Below, in pieces: positions 48,262 to 63,429 of a stretch of DNA of 63,429 nucleotides (positions within the stretch are counted from its first letter, which is position 1; each line of letters begins with the position of its first letter). This stretch comes from Patescibacteria group bacterium. GTDB lineage: Bacteria > Patescibacteriota > CPR2 > UBA1875 > CAIMLA01. The translations under genes and the position numbers were made by a program. The notes beneath the pieces were generated by a model. It was not told the DNA's origin. It worked only from the letters and a program-made list of their open reading frames with translations, and did not search any database. The stretch is taken from positions 1 to 63,429 of the forward strand of contig JAQUMB010000001.1 in the NCBI GenBank assembly GCA_028718325.1. The letters run 5' to 3'.

Positions 48262-48286
48262 AGGAATGTAGGCAGATACCTCTTGG

Positions 48287-48746: not shown

Positions 48747-48773
48747 ATCACTTTGTTGGAGCCTAACAAAAAG

Positions 48774-49004: not shown

Positions 49005-49028
49005 GCCCTCTCATCTCTCACAGGCTCA

Positions 49029-49081
49029 GGCCTGAGTTTTCTAGAGATTACTTCTCTAGTGAGCTCAGGCCATTACTTTTT
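49029..49081 (+). terminator. compound hairpin terminator
   Basis: Outer stem GGCCTGAG/CTCAGGCC encloses CTAGAGA-TTACT-TCTCTAG. A T-rich tract follows. Confidence 0.55.
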
Positions 49082-49148
49082 ATAATTTCTGATTCTGCGC
49101 CTCTTGTGAGGTATTGGCTATAATTCAAGACAAAATGCTACAAACTAC

Positions 49149-49177
49149 TTGACAAATACATTTTTATGTGATACTAT
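49149..49177 (+). promoter_or_regulatory. consensus sigma70-type promoter, paralogous to 14294-14322
   Basis: TTGACA (49149-49154), 17 nt, TACTAT (49172-49177). 29 of 36 aligned positions are identical to the 14.3-kb promoter. Confidence 0.6.
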
Positions 49178-49351
49178 GCTGTTTCAGATTATTCCAGCAC
49201 CCAAGGTGGATTTGAAGGTTCAAAGGGCAGATTAGAAATATTAGTCTTTCAAAATGAACCTTTATACCTTGCAGCAATGCAAGTGAAGTTTGCACCTTGC
49301 CAAAACGGTCAACAAAATATTCCTGATAATTCAGTGAAGGAGCCGTGAATA

Positions 49352-50356
49352 ATGAAGAAGGCCCGTCTCATAGTAGTGGTACTGATGATCGTCATCATGG
49401 CGATGATGATCTTCGCTGCCACAGCTCAGGCGACGTTCGTTTGGAGTCATGTAGGGGGGGACCCTCTCCACGCGAACGTGACGACCCAAGGCGAATTCAG
49501 TTTTTTGATGTTGAATTCGTCAAAAGTCCGGCTAGCCCTCGGTTACGTTCGGGGGGCTAACCACCAACCATCGTGGGTATTGCCTAATGCCTACAAAGAA
49601 GTGGCAAAAGGCAACATCCATAGTGGAACCGTCTCTCGAGGCACTCACTTAGGTGCCATGAGCTATGGGCGTTATGCAGTCCGAGTTGTCAAGGACACGA
49701 TTTATCGTGGACTGTACAAGAGATTGCCTATATTCTATGTCGTCAGCAAGTCTGTGACGACAAAGACAATAGGCGGAGTTAAGTACCGCGTCACCACGTC
49801 CTACTGGGTGTCCATGGCAAAGCCTTGTGGAAATGTTTTTATCTTCCACAAGAGGGTCACCAAGGTTAAAGTTCCGCCTGAGAAACACGCGGTCTTCGTC
49901 AAGAAGATCAATGCTGACACAGGTGAACAGCTTGCCAACTGGCTCATCAGTGGCGGCGGAAAGTCGGTTACGACCTTGGCTTCAGGCTGGGTCAAGCTCG
50001 GCGACTTTGAGAAAGGGAATCACTTCCCCGTTTCCGAGGAGCTCAAGTTCGGCTGGATGTCGGTCTCTCCGCTGAATGGTGTCTTCCCAGACGTCATGAT
50101 CGGAGACGAGGATGTCTATCTGACGTTCTCAAACAAGCCAATTCCAACGCCCACACCGACACCTACGCCTATTCCGACACCTACACCTACACCTACGCCA
50201 ACATGCACGGGCACACCGCCACCTCCGCCACCTCCTCCTCCGCCGACCCCTACCCCTACTCCTACCCCGACGCCATCATGCACGGGCACACCGCCACCTC
50301 CGCCACCTCCGCCACCGGATCTGTCTTGGTTGGAACGAATGGTGAGTATTTTCTGA
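49352..50356 (+). CDS. secreted surface/adhesin-like protein with a SpaA/Cna-B-like (prealbumin-fold) domain and a duplicated Pro/Thr - Cys - polyPro tail
   Basis: Signal peptide MKKARLIVVVLMIVIMAMMIFAATAQA, RBS GAAGGAG. VFVKKINADTGEQLANW resembles isopeptide/prealbumin-fold domains. The tail reads (PT)n-TCTGTPPPPPPPPPP-(PT)n-SCTGTPPPPPPPPP. Confidence 0.75.
   Translation: MKKARLIVVVLMIVIMAMMIFAATAQATFVWSHVGGDPLHANVTTQGEFSFLMLNSSKVRLALGYVRGANHQPSWVLPNAYKEVAKGNIHSGTVSRGTHLGAMSYGRYAVRVVKDTIYRGLYKRLPIFYVVSKSVTTKTIGGVKYRVTTSYWVSMAKPCGNVFIFHKRVTKVKVPPEKHAVFVKKINADTGEQLANWLISGGGKSVTTLASGWVKLGDFEKGNHFPVSEELKFGWMSVSPLNGVFPDVMIGDEDVYLTFSNKPIPTPTPTPTPIPTPTPTPTPTCTGTPPPPPPPPPPTPTPTPTPTPSCTGTPPPPPPPPPDLSWLERMVSIF
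50141..50317 (+). repeat. coding tandem duplication: PT-repeat + CTGT + polyproline module, two copies
   Basis: ATGCACGGGCACACCGCCACCTCCGCCACCTCC occurs twice (from about 50203 and about 50278), each time preceded by (CCN ACN)n. Confidence 0.85.
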
Positions 50357-50369
50357 CCGTTAACTGAAC

Positions 50370-50403
50370 GGGGAGCTGCTCTGCTCAGCAGAGCAGCTCC
50401 CCC
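50370..50403 (+). terminator. perfect 15-bp GC-rich hairpin without a U-tract (possible I-shaped terminator or processing site)
   Basis: GGGGAGCTGCTCTGC-TCA-GCAGAGCAGCTCCCC. It is followed by CAACTATC, so there is no T-run. Confidence 0.45.
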
Positions 50404-50528
50404 AACTATCTTAGAAATTTCCCTTGGATACAAAAAGGTTGTATTCAGAGGTTATAGCTAATTAAAAAATCCCCTATTGATGTCTTTGGTAAGACATCGG
50501 CCAATAGGGAAAGAAGGAGTCGAAGAAG

Positions 50529-51413
50529 ATGAAGAGTCTAAAAAGAAATTTAAAAAGAAAGGCCTTAGGTGCTTTAGCAGGTTTGATGCTATTTATACCG
50601 GTTTTGGCAATGGCAGCTAGCCCTGCCCTTGACACAACCGATCTATATAAGATTGCGAACCTAAGTAAATCCCCAAATTGGGGGGTTAGTGCTGAGGCTG
50701 ATCCTGGGCAACAGCTTACTTTTATGATCCAAGTTCATAACAAAAACCTGGACAGTGTGGCAAACGATGTCAGAGTAAAAGCTACTTTGCCTAACGGAGA
50801 AGTCACAAGCTATACATCTGTGGCTACAGTAAGTGCCGATAATGCAACATCGGTTACAGGAACAACATCCTTTCATATTTCAAGTCCTGCAACCATTGCT
50901 TATATAGCTGGGTCAACTTCGCTATATAGGAACAACAATGGAACGGCTGAATTTGAGAGAACCCTACCAGACGGAATTACTACTGAGGGTTCAGGTATTG
51001 TTATTGGTGACTTCCAAGGATGTTGGCAATACACTAAATGGGTTATTTTCAAGGCTAGAGTTGTCGCTCCAGAAAATCCAACTCTCTTCTCTTGTAGCAC
51101 AAACACTGCATGTTCGAGTACAAAGCAGTATAAAACAATTGCTGCTTGTAGCGCTGCCTTAGGTAAACCTTGTTATGCAACTGAAAATGAATGTAAGAGG
51201 ACGGCTGCTACATTTTGCCCCTTGCCTACTCCTACACCTACCCCAACTCCAACACCTACTCCTACACCCACTCCAACACCTGCCCCTGTTGCTCTGCCTA
51301 CATCAGGACCTACCGAAGCTGCTGCCGGTATCCTAGGGACACTTGGTCTGTCCGGAGCGTCTGTCGCTTGGATCAAATCCAGACGAAGGCTCATAAACGC
51401 CAAGAAGAAATAA
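50529..51413 (+). CDS. cell-wall-anchored surface protein (DUF11/CARDB-like beta-sandwich, PT linker, LPXTG-like sorting signal)
   Basis: Signal peptide ends ...VLAMAASPA. The C-terminus is (PT)9-PAPVA-LPTSG, a hydrophobic stretch, then KSRRRLINAKKK. Confidence 0.78.
   Translation: MKSLKRNLKRKALGALAGLMLFIPVLAMAASPALDTTDLYKIANLSKSPNWGVSAEADPGQQLTFMIQVHNKNLDSVANDVRVKATLPNGEVTSYTSVATVSADNATSVTGTTSFHISSPATIAYIAGSTSLYRNNNGTAEFERTLPDGITTEGSGIVIGDFQGCWQYTKWVIFKARVVAPENPTLFSCSTNTACSSTKQYKTIAACSAALGKPCYATENECKRTAATFCPLPTPTPTPTPTPTPTPTPTPAPVALPTSGPTEAAAGILGTLGLSGASVAWIKSRRRLINAKKK
51225..51287 (+). repeat. coding Pro-Thr dipeptide repeat
   Basis: PTPTPTPTPTPTPTPTPTPAP encoded by varied CCN ACN codons. 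Confidence 0.85.
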
Positions 51414-51421
51414 GTCTTAAT

Positions 51422-51452
51422 CAAAAATCCCGGGTATAACGCCCGGGATTTT
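51422..51452. terminator. bidirectional intrinsic terminator at the right edge of the GC-rich island
   Basis: AAAAATCCCGGG-TATAACG-CCCGGGATTTTT. Confidence 0.75.
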
Positions 51453-51465
51453 TATATTTATATGA

Positions 51466-51717
51466 TTATTCTGCTAAAAAGACTTCATCTCCCTCACGGA
51501 CATGATCTTTGACCTTTACTCCAACTTCTTGACCCTTTTTTGCCTCAGGAATTGATTCATGATCGAGCTGCATCTCTTTGATCTCTTGCTCAAAATCAGT
51601 AGTGTGACCCTTGAAATGAACCTTGTCGCCTACCTTTATCGGGCTGGCTGCTTTGATAATACCAACGCTGATGTGATCAAAATAATGGCTTATCTCGCCT
51701 ACTTTTTTTGCGCTCAT
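51466..51717 (-). CDS. translation-elongation-factor-like beta-barrel protein (EF-Tu domain-2-like, 83 aa)
   Basis: VGEISHYFDHISVGIIKAASPIKVGDKVHFKGHTTDFEQ...GQEVGVKVKDHVREGDEVF is the typical standalone barrel pattern. Confidence 0.7.
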   Translation of the reverse strand: MSAKKVGEISHYFDHISVGIIKAASPIKVGDKVHFKGHTTDFEQEIKEMQLDHESIPEAKKGQEVGVKVKDHVREGDEVFLAE

Positions 51718-51748
51718 ATAAAGCTCCTTTCAAATTGATTAATAATAA

Positions 51749-52027
51749 TTACATCTTCAAAAATTTCAACAACTCATAGACCATAAAGGCCGGCCAGACC
51801 AATGCTTTTAATAGGCCAACTACACCATCCCAAAAAGTTGTTGCAGTTTGGATGTAGTAAACTGCTGCCCCGATTAGCCCAAGACCGTAAACTGCCCCGG
51901 CACCGGCGTTTGAACCATAATTTTTTTTCTTTCCACAAGATTTCGCCCAGCCTTCGGCTTTTTCTTCAAGCTTTTTTTCGAAATCCTCATCCCACTCTGC
52001 TTCAATTTTTGCTGTTTTTTGTGCCAT
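51749..52027 (-). CDS. hypothetical small membrane protein
   Basis: 92 aa. Acidic N-terminus and two TM segments. Confidence 0.5.
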   Translation of the reverse strand: MAQKTAKIEAEWDEDFEKKLEEKAEGWAKSCGKKKNYGSNAGAGAVYGLGLIGAAVYYIQTATTFWDGVVGLLKALVWPAFMVYELLKFLKM

Positions 52028-53514: not shown

Positions 53515-54513
53515 CTACCCACTATTGATATCATTTACCCCGATCTTTTCCAGTGAGGGTGCCCCTCTTACCTTGTCCTTTCCTCTTTTTTTCGCTAACT
53601 TACACGCATTGTCAGCCTTTAGGAAAAGCTCTTCACTGTTACTGGCGTCTGCTGGGTATGTAGCTACCCCAATGGTGACAGTCAGATGGATGATTTCACC
53701 ATCAACCACAAACTCCACAGACCGTATTGCCCTACAGAAATTTCCGGCTTCTTTGACAGCGTTTTCTTTCGTTGTTTCCGGCAAAAGAACCACAAACTCG
53801 TCACCGCCGTAGCGGGCAACGGTATCAACCCGACGGGTTTTCGTTGCCAAGACATGTGCTATCTTCCGGAGAGTCTTGTCACCAACCTGGTGACCGTACG
53901 TGTCGTTAATCCCCTTGAAGCGATCAACATCGATGACCGCCAACGATAGGTCATGGGAAAACCGATCTGCTCGATCGATTTCCTTTTTGATCTTTTCATC
54001 GAACACCCGTCGGTTATTGAGCCCTGTCAGAACATCTGTCCTCGCACCATAATGGCCCACAGCCCACCTAAGGGTAGACACCAGAATTGTACGCAGTCTT
54101 ACCTCTTGTTCCTCATTTGGCTTTTCAGCTGAATCAAATATTGCCCATGCGTACTTTTCTTGATCCTCATATTCTAAATGGAACCTCGCAGGGAACATTA
54201 ATTCCCCCACACCGGTTTCGAGCAGAATAGGTCCCGACTCCTGTAGCTTAACAACTATCCTAAAGGAACCCGGCATCACTTCGTCGACGATTTCTAAGAG
54301 CGCTTTTGGGAGTCGTTCTTCACTAGAACCAAGGATAATTGGGATGATGCTGTTCACACCACAATCACGATGATATCCATCATGATACACCTTGGCCCTA
54401 TCTTTTTCTCTTTCAAGCTCTTTCGTCAGTTTCCTTATAGACTTGGTGGCCACAAAGAGAGCTGCAGCCATGATGAACACGCTTATCGTGAAGATATCGA
54501 CCGTGATTGACAT
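53515..54513 (-). CDS. diguanylate cyclase (GGDEF domain) with N-terminal TM and an uncharacterised sensor region
   Basis: RYGGDEFVVLLP active site, an RxxD-like RRVD upstream, and N-terminal TM ISVFIMAAALFVA. Confidence 0.88.
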   Translation of the reverse strand: MSITVDIFTISVFIMAAALFVATKSIRKLTKELEREKDRAKVYHDGYHRDCGVNSIIPIILGSSEERLPKALLEIVDEVMPGSFRIVVKLQESGPILLETGVGELMFPARFHLEYEDQEKYAWAIFDSAEKPNEEQEVRLRTILVSTLRWAVGHYGARTDVLTGLNNRRVFDEKIKKEIDRADRFSHDLSLAVIDVDRFKGINDTYGHQVGDKTLRKIAHVLATKTRRVDTVARYGGDEFVVLLPETTKENAVKEAGNFCRAIRSVEFVVDGEIIHLTVTIGVATYPADASNSEELFLKADNACKLAKKRGKDKVRGAPSLEKIGVNDINSG

Positions 54514-54650
54514 CTGGCTGCCCTCCTCTCAAGAAATTTCAAGGTACTCGATCTTGATAAATGATTCCTAGACTGGACAAAGAATTATACCCATAAAGTA
54601 ATCTTTTGTCAAAAATATTTATTAGAAATATCTAGAATGGGGAAATAGCT

Positions 54651-55037
54651 CTAATCTTCCCAAAAATTTTCAACTATATTGCTATCGTTGTGCTTTAGTC
54701 TATTTGAAATAATGAGCAATTCAACGTCTCCTGGCCCTTCGTTCCAAAAACCCCTTACTACTTGTGGTGCAATTCTGATAGCATCATGCGGTTTTAGCTC
54801 TAACACCTTCTCATCTAGCTTGACTAAAATATTACCGGAGATAACAAAAGTGACCTCCTCCTGCTCTTTATGACGATGCCCGTGGCTACCCTTAGCCCCG
54901 GTGTTTGCCGGCATACGCCTGTAAGTAATAGCAACCTGCTCGGTTTGTAGATCATTTTTCATCATTTTCATCTCGCCAGGATAATCGCCCAAAATATCCT
55001 TCACATCAGCCAAATGAACAATCGTATAATCAGGCAT
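54651..55037 (-). CDS. cupin domain protein
   Basis: GSHGHRHKEQEEVTFVISG (GX5HXHX3-4E). I start the gene at MPDYTIV, with RBS AAGGAGT 4 nt upstream. Confidence 0.8.
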   Translation of the reverse strand: MPDYTIVHLADVKDILGDYPGEMKMMKNDLQTEQVAITYRRMPANTGAKGSHGHRHKEQEEVTFVISGNILVKLDEKVLELKPHDAIRIAPQVVRGFWNEGPGDVELLIISNRLKHNDSNIVENFWED

Positions 55038-55105
55038 GATACTCCTTCCTTTTATATTTTGAACACGATTCAAATCTAAATAATCAAATATTTGCAAGCG
55101 TTGAT

Positions 55106-55639
55106 TTATGGGTTAACCGATATTTGAGTAGCTTGAACTACGCCGTTGTTGTCTTTTTGCCCCCAAACCAAGACGGTGTCTTCTGCTTTTACTGTATTTG
55201 CTGAATTGATTGGAAACCTGGTAGTATCGTTAATCTGAACATTATATGACGTTCCGCTTACGTCCATGGTAAATGTCTTGCCATTTACACCCGTAACTTT
55301 TCCGATAATTCGGTTTTGAAAGACTCTATATCCACCCATCATTCCCGGCCGCCCCATATTCCCAAAACCCATATTCCCATAATCTCTGGTGATTCTCGTA
55401 TGGTTATTGCCTATAAACCTGGGCCCAAAATTATTGTGATCAACAAAGAAAGCGCCCAAGCCTATCGCAGCCAAAATAACTAGCAACACACCCAACAAGA
55501 AAGGAAGCTTGTTTCCTTTGTGGTATGTTTCTTCTTTATTGTTTGACTGATTACTTTCTTCGACAGGTTTTGACTTTCTTTCTTCAGTTACTGGCTCAGC
55601 AATTTTTTCGCCTTCTCTTTCTTCCTGTGATTCTGGCAT
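55106..55639 (-). CDS. signal-anchored protein with a DUF5666-like C-terminal beta domain
   Basis: TM LLGVLLVILAAIGLGAFF. C-terminus GKVTGVNGKTFTMDVSGTSYNVQINDTTRF...VLVWGQ. Confidence 0.55.
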   Translation of the reverse strand: MPESQEEREGEKIAEPVTEERKSKPVEESNQSNNKEETYHKGNKLPFLLGVLLVILAAIGLGAFFVDHNNFGPRFIGNNHTRITRDYGNMGFGNMGRPGMMGGYRVFQNRIIGKVTGVNGKTFTMDVSGTSYNVQINDTTRFPINSANTVKAEDTVLVWGQKDNNGVVQATQISVNP

Positions 55640-55718
55640 AATAGCCCCCTTTATTAGTTTAAATCAAACTGATTGTAATCATATAAGCTTAGAAAAAACT
55701 GAAAACGTAATAGGAAAT

Positions 55719-56558
55719 TTACAAAAACAATGGCGTATTGTTTTGTAGAAAAGTCTTTACTGTATTTATCGGTATAGCGAACCCGATTGACTGTCCTTGT
55801 TGGTCGATCGCTGTGTTTATGCCGATCACCTGGCCATCCAGATTGACCAAAGGCCCACCTGAATTCCCAGGATTTATGGCTACATCGATTTGGAGCATAT
55901 TATTCAACGTTTCCACCCCACCGCCAGATAAACTCCCTGCCTGGATTGATCTATTCAAGGCGCTAATAACTCCCACCGTAACCGTATTTTGATATTGCCC
56001 TAGAGCATTCCCGATAGCTATCGCCTCTTGGCCGATTTGCAGGCTGGCTGAATTCCCCAGTACAACATAAGGTAAGTTGTTAGCATCAATCTTTAGCAAG
56101 GCTATATCATTGTTATTGTCCAATGCTTGAATCTTGGCGTTATATTGCTTCCCAGTACTGGTACTAACCGTATAAGTCGCGTTACTGTCGCTAACAACAT
56201 GTTTGTTCGTCAATATCAAACCATCTTTACTAACCAAAAACCCTGTTCCTGCTGTTTGTGAACTCTGGGTGTTACCAAAAAAATCAACTGACTGACTTTT
56301 GCCGCTAATACTGACAACAGCGGGTGAAGCTTGCTTCACTGAGCTGATGACAGCAGAGTTTTCATTGACAGTTTGTTGAGCGCTGGCATTGGTCACGACA
56401 TTTCCGCTTTGTTTCTGATTATTAACAAAAAGGGAGGCTCCCAAAAATCCACCGATCACACTGAAAAAGATATTAGATATTACAAAAGCGAGGATCAATT
56501 TGTACGGTATAACCCTGTTATTTCTTTCGATATCAATTCTATTATCTTGATCTTCCAT
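55719..56558 (-). CDS. trypsin-like serine protease (S1C, HtrA-like, no PDZ domain)
   Basis: Catalytic triad contexts TNKHV, DIALLK and GNSGGPL. N-terminal TM. Confidence 0.85.
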   Translation of the reverse strand: MEDQDNRIDIERNNRVIPYKLILAFVISNIFFSVIGGFLGASLFVNNQKQSGNVVTNASAQQTVNENSAVISSVKQASPAVVSISGKSQSVDFFGNTQSSQTAGTGFLVSKDGLILTNKHVVSDSNATYTVSTSTGKQYNAKIQALDNNNDIALLKIDANNLPYVVLGNSASLQIGQEAIAIGNALGQYQNTVTVGVISALNRSIQAGSLSGGGVETLNNMLQIDVAINPGNSGGPLVNLDGQVIGINTAIDQQGQSIGFAIPINTVKTFLQNNTPLFL

Positions 56559-56685
56559 GATTCCTTCTTTCTTATGGTTTCAGAATATAAAAAATATAGC
56601 AGACAAACCTTAATATTTGCTGAAGATTTAATAAAGAAGACCTGCCTCAGGAGACAGGTCTCATTTGGCAGGTCGTTTGTGTATT

Positions 56686-57168
56686 TTAATATTCGCTTTT
56701 AATTACAAAAAACGAACCCCGAATTGTTCCGGCTAATTTGGATTTCTGCCTAGCAAACTTAAACTTGCCCTCTAACTCCTTTGGCACTTTCATACCTTCT
56801 GAGAGCTTGAAACCGACAGCTCGCTTCTTGGGGTTATCAACCGTATACAGAACATTAACCTCCAGGCCGTCTTCATAGAATACATAGACCCATTTGATAT
56901 TTTCCACTTGAAAACGCGAGGTTTCTAAAGGCTTCGCTTCAAATTCAAGATTTCGCTCTTCTTTTAGAATTCGGCTAACGTATTCAAGGATCTCTTGGCT
57001 TTCACTAGCTGGTATAACTGTAAATTCATGGCCGTATTTATTCATGAAATAACGAGCTTCATTAGCGCGTAAGCCAGCAAGTGCTTTCGCTACAGGTGAA
57101 GATTCTAGGCCAATAGTGGAAACATTATTAAAATCAACTATATAGGACATTTTTTTCTCCTCGGTCAT
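56686..57168 (-). CDS. hypothetical protein
   Basis: 160-aa ORF with a terminator hairpin at about 56640-56665. No recognisable motif. Confidence 0.5.
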   Translation of the reverse strand: MTEEKKMSYIVDFNNVSTIGLESSPVAKALAGLRANEARYFMNKYGHEFTVIPASESQEILEYVSRILKEERNLEFEAKPLETSRFQVENIKWVYVFYEDGLEVNVLYTVDNPKKRAVGFKLSEGMKVPKELEGKFKFARQKSKLAGTIRGSFFVIKSEY

Positions 57169-57180
57169 TATTTTCTCTTT

Positions 57181-57375
57181 TCATTTTATGGCAAGCCGCC
57201 AGATAATATTGATTATGATGACAACTAACAAGAAAGTTACTATCTCCCAAGTCGCCCTTTTGTTTACAGATACAAATGCGACTAATATGGCTAAGGCTAC
57301 GGCAACATATAGTAATTGGAGGATCCAAACGTAGATTGGCAGGCTTAAGAATGTATTATTTAAGAAATCTTTCAT
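57181..57375 (-). CDS. hypothetical small membrane protein (two TM)
   Basis: 64 aa, hydrophobic. Confidence 0.4.
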   Translation of the reverse strand: MKDFLNNTFLSLPIYVWILQLLYVAVALAILVAFVSVNKRATWEIVTFLLVVIIINIIWRLAIK

Positions 57376-57410
57376 ACTATAATTATACGCCCTATTTAAA
57401 GTACTTAGCA

Positions 57411-57536
57411 GGTTAGATGTTTTGCGCCTGTCCGGTCCGAAGCCTCGAGCGAAGGAGGGTCATTAATTTAATAAGCTGACATAAAATCAGCTTATTAAAT
57501 ATGTTCCCTTTGGAGAGTCGAGAAGCGCAAAGATCA
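57411..57536. repeat. intergenic mosaic repeat, copy A (long imperfect palindrome with central hairpin AATAAGCTGA...TCAGCTTATT)
   Basis: 55-nt block 57459-57513 matches 60321-60376 at roughly 85%. The left arm 57421-57466 matches 57900-57942. The ends TTTGCGC/GCGCAAA are inverted. Confidence 0.75.
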
Positions 57537-57538
57537 TT

Positions 57539-57571
57539 AAAAAAGAAGCATCTTGTTTGATGCTTCTTTTT
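57539..57571 (-). terminator. intrinsic terminator
   Basis: AAAAAGAAGCATC-AAACAA-GATGCTTCTTTTTT on the minus strand. Confidence 0.7.
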
Positions 57572-57577
57572 AAGACT

Positions 57578-57760
57578 TTAGAACACTTGAGCAATAATCC
57601 AAATTGCTCCGGCCAGAGCGAGGAAAAATAATCCTAGCCCGACAGGTGATCCCCAGCTGAACCAAGAACCCCACGCGCGCCAGTGCTTCATGTGAGGTTC
57701 GTCAGCTTCAAGCCAGGACTTGTAATCCGCAAGTTGTTCTTCTTGACTTTTTTTAGCCAT
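57578..57760 (-). CDS. hypothetical small membrane protein (Trp-rich, one TM)
   Basis: 60 aa. HWRAWGSWFSWGSPVGLGLFFLALAGAIWIIAQVF. Confidence 0.5.
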   Translation of the reverse strand: MAKKSQEEQLADYKSWLEADEPHMKHWRAWGSWFSWGSPVGLGLFFLALAGAIWIIAQVF

Positions 57761-57899
57761 AGTCGACTCCTTATTATTTAGTTAATAATGAGCCCCTATT
57801 TATGTTAAGCCAGTAGCGATTACATCTCAGAGGCAAAGATTGCCGTGAATCTGGGCTTATTAACACGATTATTATAGCACAAAAGCTCAGTAAATTAAA

Positions 57900-57995
57900 T
57901 TTGGCCTGCCCGTCCAAAACGAGGTGAAGAAGGATCATTATTACAATCTTAAGTCAACTTGCAGAGATCTCTAGAGAACCGTCCCAAGGGTTGCT
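57900..57995. repeat. intergenic mosaic repeat, copy C (degenerate)
   Basis: TTTGGCCTGCCCGTCCAAAACGAGGTGAAGAAGGATCATTATT aligns with the left arm of copy A. It contains the palindrome CTCTAGAGATCTCT-like core. Confidence 0.5.
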
Positions 57996-58050
57996 CCTTA
58001 AAAAACAATCAAAAAGCGGGGTTTACCCAGCTTAATGTTTTTCGCTTTAA

Positions 58051-59166
58051 TTATGACTCTTTCGGTACGGCTGCTGTTTCATCCTTTTTCTTAAACAACT
58101 TCCTTAAACCATGATATTTACGTTCCAGGTAAACCACCAAGACAATAAGCAGTATCAGCAAAAGTCCGATCCCGGTCAGAAAATATATGTTTGTCAAAAA
58201 ATTCCATTTGCTTTCTTTGACTTGGGTCGCCGCAACTGTTGCCTTTGGATTGAACTTTACCCGTAACGATAATGTTTTTTCAGAAACGGAGCCTCCGGCA
58301 TTTTTGGCCGCTAGTTTTACGTCATAATCTTGATTCAACTTAAGACTTGGATGATCAGCTAAGACCAGATTATAGTTATCCAGCTGTTTATCCGGGATAT
58401 CTATAATTTCTGTTTCTACCGCTTTTTGGGCTTCGTAAATATACATTACATAACCGGCCAAATCGGCTTCTTTGTTTTTATCCCAAGAAAAGACAATTTG
58501 TTCGTCTTGATTCCTATCCACCTTAAAGTTAGTTGGTACCGCCAAAACACTGGGCGCAACAACAGGAGCAGTGGCAATGGTAGTAGCTTTTGTGGCAGTT
58601 TTCGTAGTTGTTGGGGCCGTCGGAGTAGTTCCAGATGTAGTCGTCGCAACATCTTTGCCATACTGCTTAAACAGTCTGTCTGCTCCAACAGGGGCTTGCT
58701 CATCACCGGTCAGCGCTACACCTCTCGAATATGTAACTCCGTCTGTACCTGTCATCCAATAGGTCTGGTTATCGATATTACTTGATAAATAGAAAGCATA
58801 TGTTGTTTCGGGGGTAACCACTAGGCTATTTTCAAAAACAAAAGGCTCCCAGGCAGCATCACCGGCGAAGGTAAGGACATGCGTTTCTGAGCCAATCACC
58901 TGTTTTGAAGCAAAGTTTTTGACTGTCATTGTAACACTGGTACCAGTTTGCCTATGCTTGAAATAAACATCAATCGATGTAACTCTATTGTATGTAGGCG
59001 TAAAGGTTTGACCAGTACCACCTATTCCAATTGATCCATAGCCCGTGTTTGATTCAACGGCATAGGACTGATCAAGGACAGAACCATCCCCAGCGATGAC
59101 ACTACCTAGCGGTAGTAAAAAAACGCAGAAGGATGCGCTAATTATAAATAACTTTAATTTTTTCAT
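58051..59166 (-). CDS. surface protein: signal peptide, beta-rich N-domain, Thr-rich linker, fibronectin-type-III-like domain, C-terminal TM anchor
   Basis: Signal peptide MKKLKLFIISASFCVFLLPLGSVIA, linker TTTSGTTPTAPTTTKTATKATTIATAP, and an FN3-like PTNFKVDRNQDEQIVFSWDKNKEADLAGYVMYIYE. The C-terminal TM is followed by a basic tail. Confidence 0.72.
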   Translation of the reverse strand: MKKLKLFIISASFCVFLLPLGSVIAGDGSVLDQSYAVESNTGYGSIGIGGTGQTFTPTYNRVTSIDVYFKHRQTGTSVTMTVKNFASKQVIGSETHVLTFAGDAAWEPFVFENSLVVTPETTYAFYLSSNIDNQTYWMTGTDGVTYSRGVALTGDEQAPVGADRLFKQYGKDVATTTSGTTPTAPTTTKTATKATTIATAPVVAPSVLAVPTNFKVDRNQDEQIVFSWDKNKEADLAGYVMYIYEAQKAVETEIIDIPDKQLDNYNLVLADHPSLKLNQDYDVKLAAKNAGGSVSEKTLSLRVKFNPKATVAATQVKESKWNFLTNIYFLTGIGLLLILLIVLVVYLERKYHGLRKLFKKKDETAAVPKES

Positions 59167-59250
59167 TTCCCTCCCTAACTCAGTTTTTTGAGTATTTTTA
59201 TTTTAGTTTAAGTTTACTCCCTTTTAGCTTAAAAACAATCATTATTATCA

Positions 59251-59280
59251 AAATTAGCAAACCGTTCGGCTTGCTAATTT
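59251..59280 (-). terminator. hairpin / probable terminator distal to repeat copy D
   Basis: AAATTAGCAA-...-TTGCTAATTT, with a T-run on the minus strand. Confidence 0.45.
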
Positions 59281-59284
59281 CTTA

Positions 59285-59420
59285 GTGAGTGTCTGCCGGC
59301 GTACCAATTAATCTTCGATTTGGAAACTTGGTTCCAACATACGTACTTTGGCGAAGCGAGAGGCGCAGGAGCCATCTAACCGAAAATGAGACACTATAAA
59401 AACTATCTATGTCTCATTTT
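59285..59420. repeat. intergenic mosaic repeat, copy D (includes 11-bp-stem hairpin 59383-59420)
   Basis: 59321-59377 aligns with 63276-63332 at roughly 70%. The exact 24-mer GAAAATGAGACACTATAAAAACTA at 59382-59405 recurs at 60407-60430. CATCTAACC is the reverse of GGTTAGATG in copy A. Confidence 0.72.
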
Positions 59421-59424
59421 AGAT

Positions 59425-60210
59425 CTAAACTGGCCTAAGAGTACCGGCAAATACTTGCCAGGCAAGAAGTGACTTTGCTACCAAAGAAAGAATAATGTAC
59501 ATTCTCTCGCCATAGAGATAGTTTCTCCAGGGACCGACTTTTTTGTACTGAAGGAATTGGTTTAGGGCAAAGATGTCAAAGAAAATAAAGATTGAAAAGA
59601 AGATCCAATAAACAAAAGTTGGTGGCTTAGCATCACCGCTACCGGCGCCAAGAAGATAGATCGCAACTGCAATCCAAGGAACAATACCGGCAAAAGTTCC
59701 AAAAATATAGGCAGTCCAATTGGTTTTCTTTGTCGTTTGATTATGCAACTCCATCATCCAGCCAAAGAAAATCATACAGGCGTTTAGGGCAAAAATCAGC
59801 ATTAGACTTATGCCATCATAGATTCCAACAAGCATGGCGATTACAACCATCATAATAGACGAACTAAAGGCATATTCCACCCATCTCATATAATTGGCAC
59901 CTTTTTTAAGATTAGCAACATACCAAGGATAAACACTTGGCAGCGAAAGAATAAAATGGGCGGCAGCTGAAAGAAACAAGAAAAGAGCAATTAGAGGAGC
60001 AATTTGCAAAGTGAATCTTTCCTGCACAACGGGCAAAAGCTTTTGTGCTTGAACGTTAAATTGCAGAAATGATGTTGTTACCGGTAAGGCAAAAGCTGTA
60101 GCTAAAACTAATAAAACAACACCCTGAATAAGGTGCAGAAATCCCATAAAAATATTGAATTTTCTAAGTCCCGAAAATGTTTTCTCGGTTACTTGTTTCT
60201 CGACAGGCAT
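59425..60210 (-). CDS. heliorhodopsin
   Basis: 261 aa, 7 TM. FLHLIQ, AAHFILS, RWVEYAFSSS, FGW, GIVPW and GERMYIILSLVAKSLLAWQVFAGTL (Schiff-base Lys in SLVAKS) match my recollection of heliorhodopsin 48C12 along the whole length. Confidence 0.9.
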   Translation of the reverse strand: MPVEKQVTEKTFSGLRKFNIFMGFLHLIQGVVLLVLATAFALPVTTSFLQFNVQAQKLLPVVQERFTLQIAPLIALFLFLSAAAHFILSLPSVYPWYVANLKKGANYMRWVEYAFSSSIMMVVIAMLVGIYDGISLMLIFALNACMIFFGWMMELHNQTTKKTNWTAYIFGTFAGIVPWIAVAIYLLGAGSGDAKPPTFVYWIFFSIFIFFDIFALNQFLQYKKVGPWRNYLYGERMYIILSLVAKSLLAWQVFAGTLRPV

Positions 60211-60239
60211 TTATCCTCCTATATTTTTGTTATAGCTCA

Positions 60240-60268
60240 ATATTAAACTTCAAAGAGATTAATGACAA
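60240..60268 (-). promoter_or_regulatory. candidate promoter of the heliorhodopsin gene
   Basis: Minus-strand TTGTCA, 17 nt, TAATAT. RBS TAGGAGGA precedes the ATG at 60210. Confidence 0.4.
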
Positions 60269-60289
60269 GCAAAAGAGACTGAGCTTCTT

Positions 60290-60430
60290 TAAAAAGTGCT
60301 TAGCAAAAAGCTAAGAGTGCGTCATTAATATAATAAGCCGACAAAAGTCAGCTTATTAGGTATGCGTTCCATTTGGTGAACTACTCCTTGCCGGAACTAC
60401 TTGGAAGAAAATGAGACACTATAAAAACTA
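60290..60430. repeat. intergenic mosaic repeat, copy B
   Basis: It shares the 55-nt hairpin block with copy A and the exact 24-mer with copy D. The 24-mer here overlaps the stop codon of the ligase gene. Confidence 0.72.
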
Positions 60431-61873
60431 GCCTACATTAACCATACTCATTAATTTCGCTAAAGATGGTTTTCCAGTTAAGGTTTTTGGTATATTACTT
60501 ATTAAGAAAACGGTGTCTGGTCTCCAAGAAGCTGGCAAGTTTTTTTTATAGTACTCCTGAATTTCTCTATTAGACATGTCTGAAACAATAAAAAATAATA
60601 TTTTATCATTTAAGCTTTCCTTGTTTTGTAACCCAGTTACATAGATTTCCTTGATCTTGCTGTTTTGCAACATTGCCCATTCAACATCTCGTGGGTTAAC
60701 CAAATAACCATTTTTCATAATTTTTTCTTGAATTCTACTTTTTAGTTTTAGTTTGTTATTTTCCTTCAAAAAAATGTCCCCGGAACGCCACCATCCATCC
60801 GAAGCAAAGTTGGCTTTAGTCGCCTTTTCGTTTTTATAATATCCCGGGAAGAGTCCGGGGCTTTTGGTTGACAGTTCTTCATTATTCTCTATCCTTATTT
60901 TTACTCCTTTTGGTAGACAGCCAAAGACGCCAGGAGATCTTTCTGATAATGTATTTAGTGCGATAGTCCCTGTTTCAGATGTCCCATAACGATCAAAAAT
61001 TTCCGCTCCGAAACGATCCTTAAATTCTTGCCATAATAAAGGGGATAGATGAGATGAACCAGATTCAAATAGTCGAACTTTATTCAGGTCATAATATTTT
61101 TCAGGGTTATGGTCCATTAATTTTTTGTAAATAGCTGGGACACCGAGAAACATTGAAATTTTTCCCGAGTCTAATAGCTCTAGTGCGCTATCTGGATTAA
61201 AGAAATTTTGTAAAAAAACTGTATTACCATGGAAAAGACTACCCAAAAGCCCAATTACTAACCCATGACGGTGTGACAGAGGCAACGGTATAAATATCGT
61301 ATCATTCCCGGTCCATCCCATAGGTTTGGCGATCGACTCTATATCCCAAAGCTGGTTATAGTGAGTATTCGGGATGACCTTTGGATTTCCGGTTGTTCCA
61401 GATGCATAGAATAAAGTAGAAATCTGTTGTTCGGGTGGCAAGAATTCATTTTTATAAGAGACTGGCCTAAACTTTTTTCTGTATAAATCATCAACTATAA
61501 TTGACTTGATAGAACTTGAAAAATAATTCCGATGTTTATGGTCGGTTATTATAAGGCTTGGCTTCGTTGTGTTAATTATGTTGTCGATCTCTAGCTTTTT
61601 AAAACTAACGTCTATAGGCATCGCCATGTGACCGCTAGAGATAATACCGTAATAAATTACGACAAATTGCCAAGAGTTTGGTAATATGATGGCAATTACG
61701 TGTTGTTTGCCAGTATCACCAAAGTGCTTACGGAGAAAACTTTCTATATTATTTGAATCAGCATAAAGCTCAGACCAATTTAGTGTCTTGTCTTGACAAA
61801 TAAGAGCTTTTTTCAAGCCTATTTTTTTTGCATTATTTTTTAAATAATCAGTTAGATATTTCCCCTTATTCAT
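60428..61873 (-). CDS. AMP-dependent synthetase/ligase (acyl-CoA-synthetase / adenylate-forming superfamily)
   Basis: LFYASGTTGNPKV (AMP-binding P-loop), YGTSETG, and GWWRSGD. I prefer the start at MNKGKY (61873), which overlaps the upstream stop as ATGAATAA. The ORF-track start is 61900. Confidence 0.85.
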   Translation of the reverse strand: MNKGKYLTDYLKNNAKKIGLKKALICQDKTLNWSELYADSNNIESFLRKHFGDTGKQHVIAIILPNSWQFVVIYYGIISSGHMAMPIDVSFKKLEIDNIINTTKPSLIITDHKHRNYFSSSIKSIIVDDLYRKKFRPVSYKNEFLPPEQQISTLFYASGTTGNPKVIPNTHYNQLWDIESIAKPMGWTGNDTIFIPLPLSHRHGLVIGLLGSLFHGNTVFLQNFFNPDSALELLDSGKISMFLGVPAIYKKLMDHNPEKYYDLNKVRLFESGSSHLSPLLWQEFKDRFGAEIFDRYGTSETGTIALNTLSERSPGVFGCLPKGVKIRIENNEELSTKSPGLFPGYYKNEKATKANFASDGWWRSGDIFLKENNKLKLKSRIQEKIMKNGYLVNPRDVEWAMLQNSKIKEIYVTGLQNKESLNDKILFFIVSDMSNREIQEYYKKNLPASWRPDTVFLISNIPKTLTGKPSLAKLMSMVNVG

Positions 61874-63068
61874 TACTAAGCCCCGCTTCTTTTTTGTCAT
61901 GAACAGTTGTATATTCTCTTATTTTTGAAGTCATGTTCTTCGCTACATCTATCACATGTTTTCTATACCGTGCGGCCAAATATATAAATGCGAGAACTGC
62001 CGTATCCAAAATAAAGTTATAGAAAACATTTGATGGAAGAGAAACCATCCAGATATGCAAAGGATAAAGAATGACAGCGGAGAGACCGTAAACAAAAAGC
62101 GGACTCTTTCCTAAAGTTTCAAAAATGCCAAAAGTCCTATTGGCAATCTGCGTCTCATACTTTCTCACCACAAGATATAGGGCTATAAAACAAATAAAAT
62201 CTAGGCTCAATCGCCCTATACCTAAAATATTTTTTTCAAAATAAGTTCCCGTTGAGCTATAAAAATTATTTAACAAGATAATCGTTGAGCTTACGAAATT
62301 AGGCAAAAAGATAACATAACTATAAGAATTTTTTACTAAATTTGAGAGATAAATTAATATCCCATTGAAAATAATAGCACCAACGGCAATCCCGACTACT
62401 AAATAACTAATCTTTTTTTGTAGTGGCTTTGTCATTACCTTAAACTTTTTTTCAGTTACGGGTAGATAATAACCAGCGACTATTCCAAAGAAAAATAGTA
62501 TTTGCCAACCCATATTAAAGCTGGTTCCACGGAATGCCCATATGGCCGCACTTGCTATTAGAATCAACCACCACTTTCGTTTTGCAATAAAATAGAGTGC
62601 AAGAGGAGCGAAAAATATAAAAACGACAAAGTGAACCCAGTAATCAGCCCACCCATAAACATATTGTAAGGTTAATGTTTGATAAATAAGATTGGAGAGA
62701 TTGGTTTGTAATATGTCGAGCTTAGTCCCAGGAGGTAACCCAGCACTTATCCCCCAAAAAGTAAAAAGTAAGGTGAAAAATACCGACCATAGGTACAGCT
62801 TCCCTGATCGTAACCAAATCTTTTTAGTAGTTTTTTTGGCGTTTTTTGTAAATTTTGGACCATAGACATAACCAATCAAAAGTCCAGAAATTAGGAAAAA
62901 ACCTTCAGCCGCTGAAACCCAAAATAACCCACGGCCCGTAATAATATCATAGATAGACGGAAAGCGTTCTATGTGATTAACAATAATTACAAACATAAAA
63001 TACCCTCGGAGTAAATCAAGTCCCAGGATTCTTGGGTTATTAGTTTTTTGTATTAAATCTGTTTGCAC
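61866..63068 (-). CDS. integral-membrane acyltransferase (acyltransferase-3 / OpgC-like family)
   Basis: 400 aa, about 10 TM. N-terminal ILGLDLLRGYFMFVIIVNHIERF matches the family pattern (conserved His). Confidence 0.72.
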   Translation of the reverse strand: MQTDLIQKTNNPRILGLDLLRGYFMFVIIVNHIERFPSIYDIITGRGLFWVSAAEGFFLISGLLIGYVYGPKFTKNAKKTTKKIWLRSGKLYLWSVFFTLLFTFWGISAGLPPGTKLDILQTNLSNLIYQTLTLQYVYGWADYWVHFVVFIFFAPLALYFIAKRKWWLILIASAAIWAFRGTSFNMGWQILFFFGIVAGYYLPVTEKKFKVMTKPLQKKISYLVVGIAVGAIIFNGILIYLSNLVKNSYSYVIFLPNFVSSTIILLNNFYSSTGTYFEKNILGIGRLSLDFICFIALYLVVRKYETQIANRTFGIFETLGKSPLFVYGLSAVILYPLHIWMVSLPSNVFYNFILDTAVLAFIYLAARYRKHVIDVAKNMTSKIREYTTVHDKKEAGLSNE

Positions 63069-63232
63069 TAATCTTCCATTATTTTGATGCTTAGCAACAT
63101 TTTCTATTTGATTTTTGCTTTTGTCCTTTTTACATTCTATTATTAACCTGAAAAATTGCTGAAAGCTTAAGAAAAAGTTGTATCAATATTTTCAAAATTC
63201 TTTTGTTAATTCTATTCCGGTAAGGGTTCAAT

Positions 63233-63271
63233 AAAAAAAAACACGAAATTCATTGAAAATCGTGTTTTTTT
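63233..63271 (-). terminator. intrinsic terminator distal to repeat copy E
   Basis: A-run, stem ACACGA/TCGTGT, T-run. It is symmetrical. Confidence 0.6.
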
Positions 63272-63275
63272 ATAC

Positions 63276-63332
63276 TTGGAACTTTGGTTCCATGAAGCAC
63301 ATATTGGCGAGCCGAGATACGCTGGAGCCTAT
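63276..63332. repeat. intergenic mosaic repeat, copy E
   Basis: TTGGAACTTTGGTTCCATGAAGCACATATTGGCGAGCCGAGATACGCTGGAGCCTAT aligns with copy D. Confidence 0.6.
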
Positions 63333-63429
63333 TTGGGCAAAAGAGACTTCATTCGTTTGGCGATAAGGTTGGTGGCATATACCGGATTGATTCGGTAAAG
63401 CAGGTTCATCATATTGGAATCTTTGCCGG
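63329..63429 (-). CDS. 3' end of an unidentified CDS that continues beyond the window
   Basis: The open frame ...GKDSNMMNLLYRINPVYATNLIAKRMKSLLPK-stop has composition typical of this genome. A second frame is also open, so this call is tentative. Confidence 0.35.
   Translation of the reverse strand, partial: GKDSNMMNLLYRINPVYATNLIAKRMKSLLPK

Follow-up and report, generated by a model that had tools for sequence, protein, structure and literature searches.

The contig analysed here carries on its minus strand an open reading frame that resembles a heliorhodopsin (HeR), a protein that binds retinal and senses light. The locus therefore raises the question whether this is a genuine HeR gene, in what kind of organism it stands, from where its retinal could come and whether the genes around it name the protein to which it would signal. 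In what follows, the window means the whole stretch of DNA that was analysed, a contig of 63,429 nt, of which 57 ORFs were scanned against Pfam. Our explanation, which we hold to be very probably correct, is that of a canonical and functional HeR with its own transcription unit in a CPR host, supplied with retinal from outside, and with a partner that is not identifiable at the locus. The gene and the motifs in its translation are the following:

59425..60210, minus strand: heliorhodopsin (HeR) CDS, ATG start, 261 aa (Pfam, NCBIfam, structure, residue mapping, dN/dS)
Residues 24-29 of the HeR translation: FLHLIQ
Residues 83-89 of the HeR translation: AAHFILS
Residues 109-118 of the HeR translation: RWVEYAFSSS
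Residues 149-154 of the HeR translation: FGWMME
Residues 175-179 of the HeR translation: GIVPW
Residues 220-224 of the HeR translation: LQYKK
Residues 234-258 of the HeR translation: GERMYIILSLVAKSLLAWQVFAGTL

The ORF at 59425..60210 is a genuine, intact heliorhodopsin gene. Its product matched Pfam PF18761 with 335.4 bits (cutoff 26.7, E 2e-100) over profile positions 1-242 of 242 and the NCBIfam HeR equivalog NF038020 with 348 bits (cutoff 100) over positions 1-244 of 244, and heliorhodopsins of the PDB matched it at E 3e-77 to 2e-63; the resemblance goes beyond chance. Heliorhodopsin was the sole Pfam family found for this ORF at E <= 1, and Bac_rhodopsin was absent. A preliminary description, made from the DNA alone, had reported a 261-aa ORF with the heliorhodopsin blocks in order, and all motifs quoted there are present in the order given. 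The profile search that it proposed with the Pfam heliorhodopsin model returned 335 bits from end to end, and in the proposed alignment with 48C12 and TaHeR the Lys, the Glu and the two His are all homologous.

Residue mapping placed H26, H85, E112, S242 and K246 at H23, H80, E107, S237 and K241 of 48C12, and Q29, S81, N106, R109, W110, Y113, E154 and Q218 are likewise identical with 48C12. The histidines H26 and H85 also align with H23 and H82 of TaHeR, and the TM3 counterion E112, within RWVEYAFSSS, with TaHeR E108. The TM7 motif SxxxK (S242-L-V-A-K246) aligns with 48C12 S237/K241 and TaHeR S234/K238, the type-1 counterpart being DxxxK. In an alignment of 41 homologous sequences H26, H85, E112, S242 and K246 were invariant. 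The dN/dS ratio against four orthologues was approximately 0.04 (dS being saturated against L092 and L094), so the HeR gene is under strong purifying selection. Judged by its sequence, the gene is canonical and functional.

The AlphaFold model (pLDDT 85, pTM 0.81) has seven helices, with strands spanning residues 41-52 and 57-69, and the predicted structure contains the seven-helix HeR fold with the long beta-hairpin of the A-B loop. It superposed on TaHeR (6IS6) with TM 0.91/0.95 and an rmsd of 1.1 Å, and its best 10 PDB matches were all HeRs (TM 0.86-0.96), whereas type-1 rhodopsin structures reached TM <= 0.67 at 7-15% identity. A type-1 microbial rhodopsin is rejected by this TM ceiling, by the missing Bac_rhodopsin match and by the motif SLVAK in place of DxxxK. 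K+R residues number 10 in the N-terminus plus the BC, DE and FG loops, whereas the C-terminus and the loops AB, CD and EF have 4 between them. By the positive-inside rule this charge bias, an indirect proxy, fits an inverted topology with the N-terminus cytoplasmic and the C-terminus outside. The preliminary description had named a predicted outside N-terminus as evidence against its identification; by the same proxy, the bias favours the N-terminus inside.

By analogy with characterised HeRs, the apoprotein would insert so that the N-terminus faces the cytoplasm, and would bind all-trans-retinal at K246. Absorbed green light would drive a slow photocycle in which no net transport of ions occurs, and the signal would pass to another protein by contact and not via a fused output domain.

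With regard to the chromophore, no crt, blh or other retinal-synthesis family was detected by Pfam among the 57 ORFs of the window, in agreement with the earlier claim that crtE/B/I/Y and blh-like genes are absent from it, and no retinal genes were found within +/-10 kb of HeR in three strain variants. The broader wording of the preliminary description, 'no retinal pathway', holds within the 63 kb and approximately 7 kb of strain-variant sequence that the scan covered, which is about 6-7% of a CPR-size genome (likely near 1 Mb). Rhodopsin-bearing Saccharibacteria are reported to lack blh, rhodopsin-bearing CPR bacteria to depend on external retinal, and HeR to take up retinal fast (PMC9296517). 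Retinal scavenging by this organism is a reasonable supposition and, if the organism does not make retinal, it must obtain the chromophore from other cells or from its environment. The chromophore would enter the retinal pocket from the side, through the opening known from solved HeRs, in all of which a lateral fenestration has been reported (preprint 10.1101/2025.11.27.691015).

The fenestration residues Y168 (TaHeR Y164), F211 and A215 (48C12 F206 and A210) are kept here, and D212, an Asp specific to this lineage, sits where 48C12 has the fenestration Asn N207. These residues bear on a rival explanation, according to which the protein is chiefly a light-harvesting two-chromophore protein that takes up exogenous xanthophyll along with retinal via an outward-facing fenestration; xanthophyll recruitment has been proposed for HeRs in general (10.1101/2025.11.27.691015, an unreviewed preprint). 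The conservation of Y168, F211 and A215 would suit it, and a CPR cell, bounded by one membrane and living on or close to others, could gain access to carotenoids outside it, an argument drawn from the preprint; however, this lineage has Asp where the proposed carotenoid site has Asn, the hypothesis is itself unreviewed, and bacterial HeRs are not known to have an energy-transducing output. We consider a chiefly light-harvesting role improbable; it would in any case be compatible with a sensory role.

The host is a Patescibacteria (CPR) bacterium, represented by a MAG, as follows from the GenBank name, the ThrRS relatives and the HeR clade. GenBank names the source organism Patescibacteria group bacterium. 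All named best relatives of the ThrRS are CPR (Berkelbacteria, Shapirobacteria and others, at 60-66% identity), the nearest relatives of HeR and of the ligase are labelled Saccharibacteria or Saccharimonadales, and an NJ tree places the HeR within a clade labelled CPR, 26/29 CPR sequences having a CPR nearest neighbour. The CPR-like host of the preliminary description accordingly agrees with the GenBank name and the ThrRS relatives. CPR bacteria are described in the literature as monoderm, and no outer-membrane biogenesis family was detected by Pfam among the 57 ORFs of the 63 kb. A recent horizontal transfer of HeR was considered and is not supported, as dS is saturated, the protein falls in the CPR clade, and the identity gradients run parallel (HeR 91-84%, then 73%; ThrRS 86-85%, then 75%).

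The exact HeR sequence was recovered from landfill leachate well metagenomes. In such wells light and retinal producers are both possibly scarce, which may count against a purely light-driven role. Because landfill leachate, the habitat of the organism, is dark, we considered a light-independent role, as a sensor of host retinoid or carotenoid availability or as a structural membrane protein. The recovery of the exact sequence from a leachate well metagenome and the strong purifying selection despite that habitat both favour such a role. All photochemically essential residues are kept, however, a fact difficult to account for if there were no photochemistry; the wells and cisterns that collect leachate are surface-fed, and the same clade is widespread. 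HeRs of sediment organisms, for example that of the TaHeR host, are moreover light-active in vitro. A role independent of light is for these reasons very unlikely.

The signals around the gene, together with the adjoining genes and the copies of a repeat, are listed in the order of their coordinates:

58051..59166, minus strand: fn3-domain protein, 371 aa (Pfam fn3, 25.2 bits), downstream neighbour outside the HeR unit
59382..59405, minus strand: downstream copy of the repeat, forming the loop, 3' arm and U-run of the hairpin after HeR
59383..59420, minus strand: downstream hairpin, which begins 5 nt past the stop codon of HeR and has a 12-bp stem with a U-run at its end
60215-60220, minus strand: RBS AGGAGG, 4 nt upstream of the HeR ATG, read from the sequence
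60240..60268, minus strand: weak candidate sigma-70-type promoter, TTGTCA-17-TAATAT, inferred from a consensus scan (9/12 match)
60299..60358, minus strand: two hairpins between the ligase and HeR, one with a perfect stem of 12 bp (60331-60358), the other with a 6-bp stem and a T-run behind it (60299-60315)
60407..60430, minus strand: upstream copy of the repeat, TAGTTTTTATAGTGTCTCATTTTC, the first three bases of which are the AMP-ligase stop codon
60428-61900, minus strand: AMP-binding ligase (Pfam), upstream neighbour outside the HeR unit
61866-63068, minus strand: OpgC-type acyltransferase (Pfam), overlapping the ligase and outside the HeR unit

The HeR gene appears to be monocistronic, forming a transcription unit of its own, because of the hairpins upstream, the long spacers, its own conserved RBS and the hairpin after its stop. 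The spacers to the adjoining genes measure 217 and 258 nt and both contain hairpins. The upstream spacer (60285-60430) folds with -37.2 kcal/mol (z = -3.2), a terminator scan also gave 60315-60299, and these hairpins probably terminate the OpgC-ligase operon ahead of the HeR promoter. The hairpin after the HeR stop folds with -16.8 kcal/mol (z = -3.3), 1/200 shuffles folding as well, and is plausibly an intrinsic terminator. The RBS of the preliminary description was found as AGGAGG 4 nt before the ATG, and GGAGG is kept at this position in 4/5 orthologues (L094 having GGAGGGG). Its candidate promoter does exist as a 9/12 match, but promoter-like matches are not enriched near HeR (7 observed against 4.3 +/- 2.6 expected from shuffled sequence). 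DNA homology upstream of the ATG reaches 70 nt in L092 and 43 nt in L094, and spans the candidate promoter stretch.

An exact 24-nt direct repeat (59382-59405 and 60407-60430; 0.00 expected by chance) brackets HeR, as had been noted in the preliminary description, which placed repeats on both sides of the gene. The upstream copy has no fold of its own (z = +0.8). Assemblies L001-L005, which are of the same species, carry both copies, no copy of the 24-mer was found in the other 80 HeR loci, and none was found in L088 with up to 3 mismatches. A search for an empty-site allele by a metagenome scan with the ligase gave a single 2.9-kb contig without HeR. The repeat and D212 enter together into one further interpretation: that HeR is a self-contained cassette with promoter, RBS and terminator, of which the 24-nt repeat is the insertion footprint, and that the lineage-specific Asp at the fenestration mouth tunes the uptake of a host-supplied chromophore. 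Taken jointly, the two parts make a long shot. The insertion may then lie between the conserved OpgC-ligase operon and the surface-protein gene, in a flexible, island-rich region. The junction GGCTAGTTTTTATAGTGTCTCATTTTCGGTTAGATGG would be the empty-site allele and, if found, would mean that the 24-nt repeat mediates gain and loss of the HeR cassette. If the chromophore part were true, the extent to which the protein is loaded with pigment, and with it the sensitivity to light, would indicate that the cell touches a host that makes retinal, which would be unusual for a bacterium living mostly in the dark.

The neighbourhood bears on the signalling partner. The long co-oriented minus-strand run previously given as 53.5-63.1 kb was confirmed; it spans 53515 to 63068 and comprises, in order, genes for a GGDEF protein, a cupin, a DUF5666 protein, an S1 protease, a hypothetical protein, the fn3 protein, HeR, the AMP-binding ligase and the OpgC-type acyltransferase. 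The protease had been called HtrA-like; its trypsin domain stands, and it stands alone, a PDZ domain having been sought with Pfam and none detected. The fn3 protein is hydrophobic at residues ~6-25, at its N-terminus, and at ~336-356, near its C-terminus, of which the first may be a signal peptide and the second a membrane anchor; the protein adjoins HeR only in same-species assemblies. The OpgC-ligase pair occurs without an adjacent HeR in L088, L089, L090, L091 and the P0131 contig, and is thus a conserved two-gene module.

It had been suggested that conserved neighbours could reveal the partner, and that the neighbourhood should be compared across relatives. Twelve neighbours in the window were searched by tblastn against 80 HeR loci of other species, and the outcome goes against this expectation: a GGDEF gene lay within 10 kb of HeR in 2/80 loci, a single weak match was obtained for the ligase (29%, L067) and another for the protease (27%, L082), and for the remaining nine there was none in these loci. 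The comparison across relatives was equally unfavourable, as four HeR orthologues at 85-91% identity each stand in a different, unrelated context. When 56 window proteins were compared with the orthologue loci (85-91%) and the loci of the ligase relatives, only HeR was matched in the orthologue loci. A general loss of synteny as the cause of these varied contexts was rejected, since the ThrRS region is collinear over ~20 kb in a relative with 86% ThrRS identity; HeR therefore lies in a flexible region.

When the 975 ORFs lying up to 6 kb on either side of HeR in 81 loci were clustered, no neighbour proved to be universally conserved, no family occurring in more than 10 of the 81. The recurrent families, each in at most 10 of the 81 loci and mostly from Chloroflexi and Actinobacteria, were an ABC exporter, MerR/B12, a response regulator, a histidine kinase, an SDR and a photolyase, by which the published HeR neighbour classes are reproduced. 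No ABC exporter, MerR/B12, photolyase, SDR or two-component gene adjoins the HeR of the window. The SDR of the strain variants L003 and L004 was considered as an HeR-linked retinol dehydrogenase, but no specific link was found, its similarity to the SDR of L069, which abuts HeR, being a generic 30%.

These results weigh on the explanation that HeR works with its neighbours, passing a light signal to the GGDEF cyclase, to the S1 protease or to the fn3, OpgC and ligase genes of the envelope. The co-orientation of all genes from 53.5 to 63.1 kb speaks for it, as do a PAS-GGDEF gene ~3 kb from the OpgC-ligase pair in one relative and the occurrence, 'less frequently', of GGDEF and EAL proteins near HeRs (PMC8612252). 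Set against this are the 2/80 loci with GGDEF, the single weak ligase and protease matches and the nine neighbours without any, the four unrelated contexts of the 85-91% orthologues and the conservation of the OpgC-ligase pair without HeR. The GGDEF gene of the window, besides, is ~5 kb and five genes from HeR, and hairpins and long spacers flank the latter. A functional link with these neighbours is already disfavoured, and we give it hardly any credence. As the neighbours are not conserved and HeR is insulated, the locus names no signalling partner for what we regard as a canonical HeR.

Bacterial and archaeal HeRs are not known to transport ions, and this absence, with the grouping of the present protein among them (52% identity to TaHeR, CPR clade), argues against a light-gated proton transporter or channel, the least probable of the functions weighed here. 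Such a protein would resemble viral V2HeR3, one HeR subgroup, that of giant viruses, being a transporter of protons (PMC9448325), but the paper on HeR neighbour groups (PMC11109279) regards transport as a property of viral HeRs alone.

The finding is not new: GenBank already annotates the exact protein as 'heliorhodopsin HeR [Patescibacteria group bacterium]', and CPR HeRs (Chiriac 2022, Bulzu 2021) and retinal scavenging (Jaffe 2022) precede it as well. Its significance is small beyond bookkeeping. The automatic GenBank annotation is correct, and one more well-supported case is added to the many CPR bacteria that have been reported to carry HeRs while lacking retinal synthesis. The negative result is useful in that the neighbourhood is uninformative on the long-sought signalling partner of HeR, the neighbours being lineage-specific whereas the HeR gene is highly conserved and mobile in context. 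The leachate occurrence and the fenestration Asp are possible test cases for rhodopsin specialists; neither alters current knowledge.

Among the closest known systems is TaHeR of Thermoplasmatales archaeon SG8-52-1 (PDB 6IS6, 7U55, 7CLJ), with 52% identity over the full length (E 3e-77); it shares the five key residues (H, H, E, S, K) and has a Y at the fenestration as well (Y168 = Y164). It differs in being archaeal, whereas this HeR is from a CPR bacterium, and in having N204 in place of D212 and an EF loop shorter by 4 residues. As cited in PMC9296517, the TaHeR host has no retinal pathway and TaHeR quickly takes up external retinal. The founding HeR, 48C12 (PDB 6SU3, 6UH3, 9LJJ), shares 45-47% identity with a TM-score of 0.87-0.89; it is actinobacterial, and its N207, C166 and F162 are D212, T172 and Y168 here. 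The HeR-partner operons AbHeR-glutamine synthetase, TfHeR-photolyase and OcHeR-OmrDE ABC exporter (PMC9529153, PMC9769723, PMC11109279) share with this HeR the presumed mode of light-dependent partner regulation by direct contact. Unlike in those operons, none of their partner classes adjoins here: the adjoining genes are 217 and 258 nt off and neither belongs to the classes listed in PMC11109279, so this gene is of the 'helR alone' class of that paper. SacR of Saccharibacteria (Jaffe 2022, PMC9296517) follows the same ecological logic, a CPR retinal protein without blh whose chromophore must come from other cells, but belongs to a different family, the outward proton pumps with a DTS motif and type-1 topology. 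The published CPR HeRs, finally, comprise 98 HeRs among 86 rhodopsin-bearing CPR genomes, with SLVAK as the commonest motif (Chiriac 2022, PMC9166423), and were catalogued also by Bulzu 2021 (PMC8612252). They show no categorical difference from the present protein, being of the same family and radiation and having the same SLVAK motif; they are from lakes, whereas this lineage is from landfill leachate.

The heliorhodopsin (HeR) gene was taken from the ORF listing as follows:

59425-60210, minus strand: HeR ORF with ATG start, 261 aa

All sequence blocks quoted as HeR motifs in the preliminary description were found in the translated protein, and its assignment to the family was supported by matches to Pfam, NCBI and PDB entries. 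In the Pfam search the protein matched Heliorhodopsin (PF18761) with 335 bits (E 2e-100) over positions 1-242 of the 242-position profile, this being the sole family at E <= 1, and the NCBI HeR equivalog model NF038020 scored 348 bits (cutoff 100). A phmmer search of PDB sequences returned HeRs only, including TaHeR, the HeR of Thermoplasmatales archaeon SG8-52-1 (6IS6, E 3e-77), and entries of the founding HeR 48C12 (E 3e-64 to 2e-63); the resemblance is far above chance. Residues were mapped by alignment to TaHeR and 48C12 in native numbering, via the alignment of the 48C12 entry 9LJJ. This alignment, proposed earlier as a check, matched the lysine, the glutamate and both histidines:

H26: 48C12 H23, TaHeR H23; conserved histidine
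H85: 48C12 H80, TaHeR H82; conserved histidine
E112: 48C12 E107, TaHeR E108; counterion
S242: 48C12 S237, TaHeR S234; SxxxK motif
K246: 48C12 K241, TaHeR K238; Schiff-base lysine

None of these five residues varies when the protein is aligned with 40 homologues (62-91% identity), and it further shares Q29, S81, N106, R109, W110, Y113, S117, M146, E154 and Q218 with 48C12. The protein has the HeR fold. The AlphaFold2 model, built from the 40-homologue alignment (pLDDT 85, pTM 0.81), comprises seven helices and, between helices A and B, a two-stranded sheet (residues 41-69), the hallmark loop of HeRs. The first ten matches of the model in a Foldseek search of the PDB were all HeR chains; TaHeR 6IS6 gave a TM of 0.91/0.95, an rmsd of 1.1 Å and 52% identity, and 48C12 entries a TM of 0.87-0.92, whereas type-1 rhodopsins reached at best only 0.67, with 7-15% identity. 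On the side that the HeR topology predicts to be cytoplasmic (N-terminus; BC, DE and FG loops), lysine and arginine total 10, versus 4 on the opposite side (AB, CD and EF loops; C-terminus), a charge bias which, as an indirect test, agrees with the N-in topology of HeRs.

The identification is correct but already public, the exact protein being annotated in GenBank (MDD5692926.1 and MFA5197308.1) as 'heliorhodopsin HeR [Patescibacteria group bacterium]'. In 1,326 surveyed CPR genomes, 98 HeRs were counted among the 86 that bear rhodopsins, and the commonest motif was SLVAK (PMC9166423); gene-context analyses with Patescibacteria included already exist (PMC8612252). The curiosities that remain at this locus are the bracketing 24-nt repeat, residue D212 and the dark habitat.

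The host is a CPR bacterium. Named close relatives of the threonyl-tRNA synthetase (ThrRS) of the window all belong to CPR lineages, and the species-representative HeR closest to this one (85% identity) is, like the relatives of the neighbouring ligase, labelled Saccharibacteria or Saccharimonadales. In a neighbour-joining tree computed from 84 HeR sequences without bootstrap support, the protein falls inside a clade dominated by CPR-labelled genomes, and a CPR sequence is the nearest neighbour for 26 of the 29 CPR HeRs. The identity gradient of HeR matches that of ThrRS; given these gradients and the CPR clade, nothing suggests a recent acquisition from a host phylum. Two HeR contigs of 9.1 and 2.9 kb (L009 and L029), from MAGs labelled 'uncultured Gammaproteobacteria', nest in the CPR HeR clade and probably represent mis-binning, not diderm exceptions. 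Compared with the orthologues L092 and L094, dN/dS was 0.04 (dS 1.5-1.9), and dS was beyond correction against L093 and L007; the ratio of 0.04 therefore indicates strong, long-lasting purifying selection, and the gene is no relic. An identical HeR sequence and locus (L003) was found in IMG metagenome 3300037067, which was sampled at a municipal landfill in Southern Ontario (leachate well LW3; 10.1101/2024.05.30.596742). Landfill leachate is a largely dark place in which to find a light-sensor gene that is under strong purifying selection.

Spacers of 217 and 258 nt separate HeR from the upstream AMP-binding ligase and the downstream fn3 protein, respectively, with the following elements:

60331-60358, ligase-HeR spacer: perfect 12-bp hairpin (fold)
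60299-60315, ligase-HeR spacer: second hairpin, then a T-run (fold)
4 nt 5' of the HeR ATG: RBS AGGAGG
5 nt after the HeR stop: 12-bp hairpin ending in a U-run (-16.8 kcal/mol, z = -3.3)

The upstream spacer region folds at -37.2 kcal/mol (z = -3.2), and its hairpins are best read, on sequence grounds, as the putative end of the OpgC-ligase operon. The RBS proposed previously is present and conserved, GGAGG being kept at this position in 4 of 5 orthologues (GGAGGGG in L094), while the promoter proposed with it, TTGTCA-17-TAATAT, is a weak consensus match only. DNA homology to two orthologues reaches 43-70 nt 5' of the HeR ATG, into the stretch of the promoter candidate. Because of the spacers, the flanking hairpins and its own RBS, HeR appears to be a stand-alone, monocistronic gene.

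The suggestion that conserved neighbours could point to the signalling partner was not borne out. Among the 12 window neighbours, only the GGDEF domain recurred, within 10 kb of HeR in 2 of 80 other-species loci; the ligase and the protease gave one weak match each (27-29% identity) in these loci. The latter (55719-56558, minus strand) had been called HtrA-like and contains trypsin-type domains only, with no PDZ detected. Gene context differs in each of the four closest orthologues, and DNA homology to them is limited to the ORF and at most 70 nt upstream:

L092, HeR identity 89%: radical-SAM and Fic genes
L093, HeR identity 91%: M23 peptidase and type II restriction-methylase
L094, HeR identity 90%: VanW-domain protein
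L007, HeR identity 85%: a further, different gene set

General synteny loss is ruled out as the cause, since the ThrRS region is collinear over ~20 kb between the window and a relative with an 86%-identical ThrRS. HeR thus lies in a flexible region, because its contexts vary while ThrRS synteny holds. This region borders a strain-variable defence island, with CBASS in the same-species assemblies L001/L002 and SDR plus restriction-modification in L003/L004. The DNA past the OpgC gene (63069-63429 and beyond; L001 1-7143, L003 1-4778) is strain-variable, carrying LexA-like, SAVED and SMODS (CBASS) genes and a ParB-methylase in L001/L002 and, in their stead, an SDR and Eco57I-type restriction-methylase in L003/L004; it looks like a defence-island hotspot adjoining the HeR region. 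The overlapping OpgC-ligase pair (60428-63068) is kept without HeR in relatives (ligase 51-62%, OpgC 37-66% identical) and probably acylates an envelope polymer. One of these relatives has a cupin directly 3' of the ligase, another a PAS-GGDEF gene ~3 kb off.

Across 81 loci, no family occurred in more than 10 as a conserved HeR companion. The recurrent families were ABC exporter, MerR/B12-binding regulator, response regulator, histidine kinase, SDR and photolyase, and these neighbour classes are already published (PMC11109279; PMC8612252). In a Saccharibacteria locus, HeR is followed at a distance of 5 nt by an SDR-family oxidoreductase (L069 6153-6944), which fits the published SDR operon class; the SDR of L003/L004 is not its specific kin, the likeness being generic (30% identity).

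The preliminary description had also placed repeats on both sides of HeR, and an exact 24-nt direct repeat, TAGTTTTTATAGTGTCTCATTTTC, does bracket the gene (60407-60430 and 59382-59405; chance expectation 0.00). The upstream copy opens with the stop codon of the ligase gene and the downstream copy forms the 3' half of the hairpin after HeR. Every same-species assembly contains the repeat; none of the other 80 HeR loci does, nor does L088 (mismatches allowed), a relative's locus with the OpgC-ligase pair and no HeR beside it. An empty-site allele without HeR was looked for and not found. The repeat may have been left behind by whatever event brought HeR to this site, or it may belong to an intergenic repeat family of the species.

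Elsewhere in the window, a bacterial class A RNase P RNA (32671-33211, minus strand) matches over 541 nt against a 367-position model, which implies ~170 nt of insertions; a 124-aa ORF overlapping it (32812-33186, plus strand) is probably spurious. A tmRNA (10583-10976, plus strand) is predicted to encode a tag peptide of unusual length, AKTLSSKIANAFRINTFAPAVA, with PAVA at its end. Positions 48000-52000 have a GC of 0.46 versus about 0.38 elsewhere and may be acquired DNA; directly after a tRNA-Thr/tRNA-Gly pair lie the ORFs 49352-50356, with no significant Pfam match, and 50529-51413, with only a sub-threshold match to DUF11.

No match to phytoene synthase or desaturase, lycopene cyclase, polyprenyl synthase, Blh or carotenoid oxygenase was found among the 57 window ORFs searched against Pfam, and the precomputed Pfam tables of three strain variants, which span HeR +/-10 kb, contained no retinal/carotenoid families either. 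The scan covers the 63-kb window and the variant flanks, a small share of the genome; the remark that no retinal pathway was in sight is correct for the window and says nothing on the whole genome. The suggestion of retinal scavenging matches published reports, in which the external-retinal argument for CPR has been made and blh was not detected in Saccharibacteria that carry rhodopsins (PMC9296517); a passage of that paper cites HeR as loading external retinal quickly in organisms without a retinal pathway.

By analogy with characterised HeRs, the protein would insert N-in and bind all-trans-retinal at K246 with E112 as counterion, its photocycle would be slow and without ion transport, and it may signal through protein contact. 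Contact partners have been published for HeRs, namely glutamine synthetase, photolyase and an ABC exporter (PMC9529153, PMC9769723, PMC11109279). The organism would take retinal from outside via the lateral fenestration of HeR, the lining of which keeps the conserved residues Y168, F211 and A215 in this protein. Asp at position 212 spans the whole 84-91% HeR clade and occurs in 16 of 114 motif-matched homologue sequences, which include the query's own cluster, with Asn in the other 98. The solved HeRs carry a fenestration Asn here (48C12 N207, TaHeR N204), whereas the present protein has Asp, D212 (about 59575-59577).
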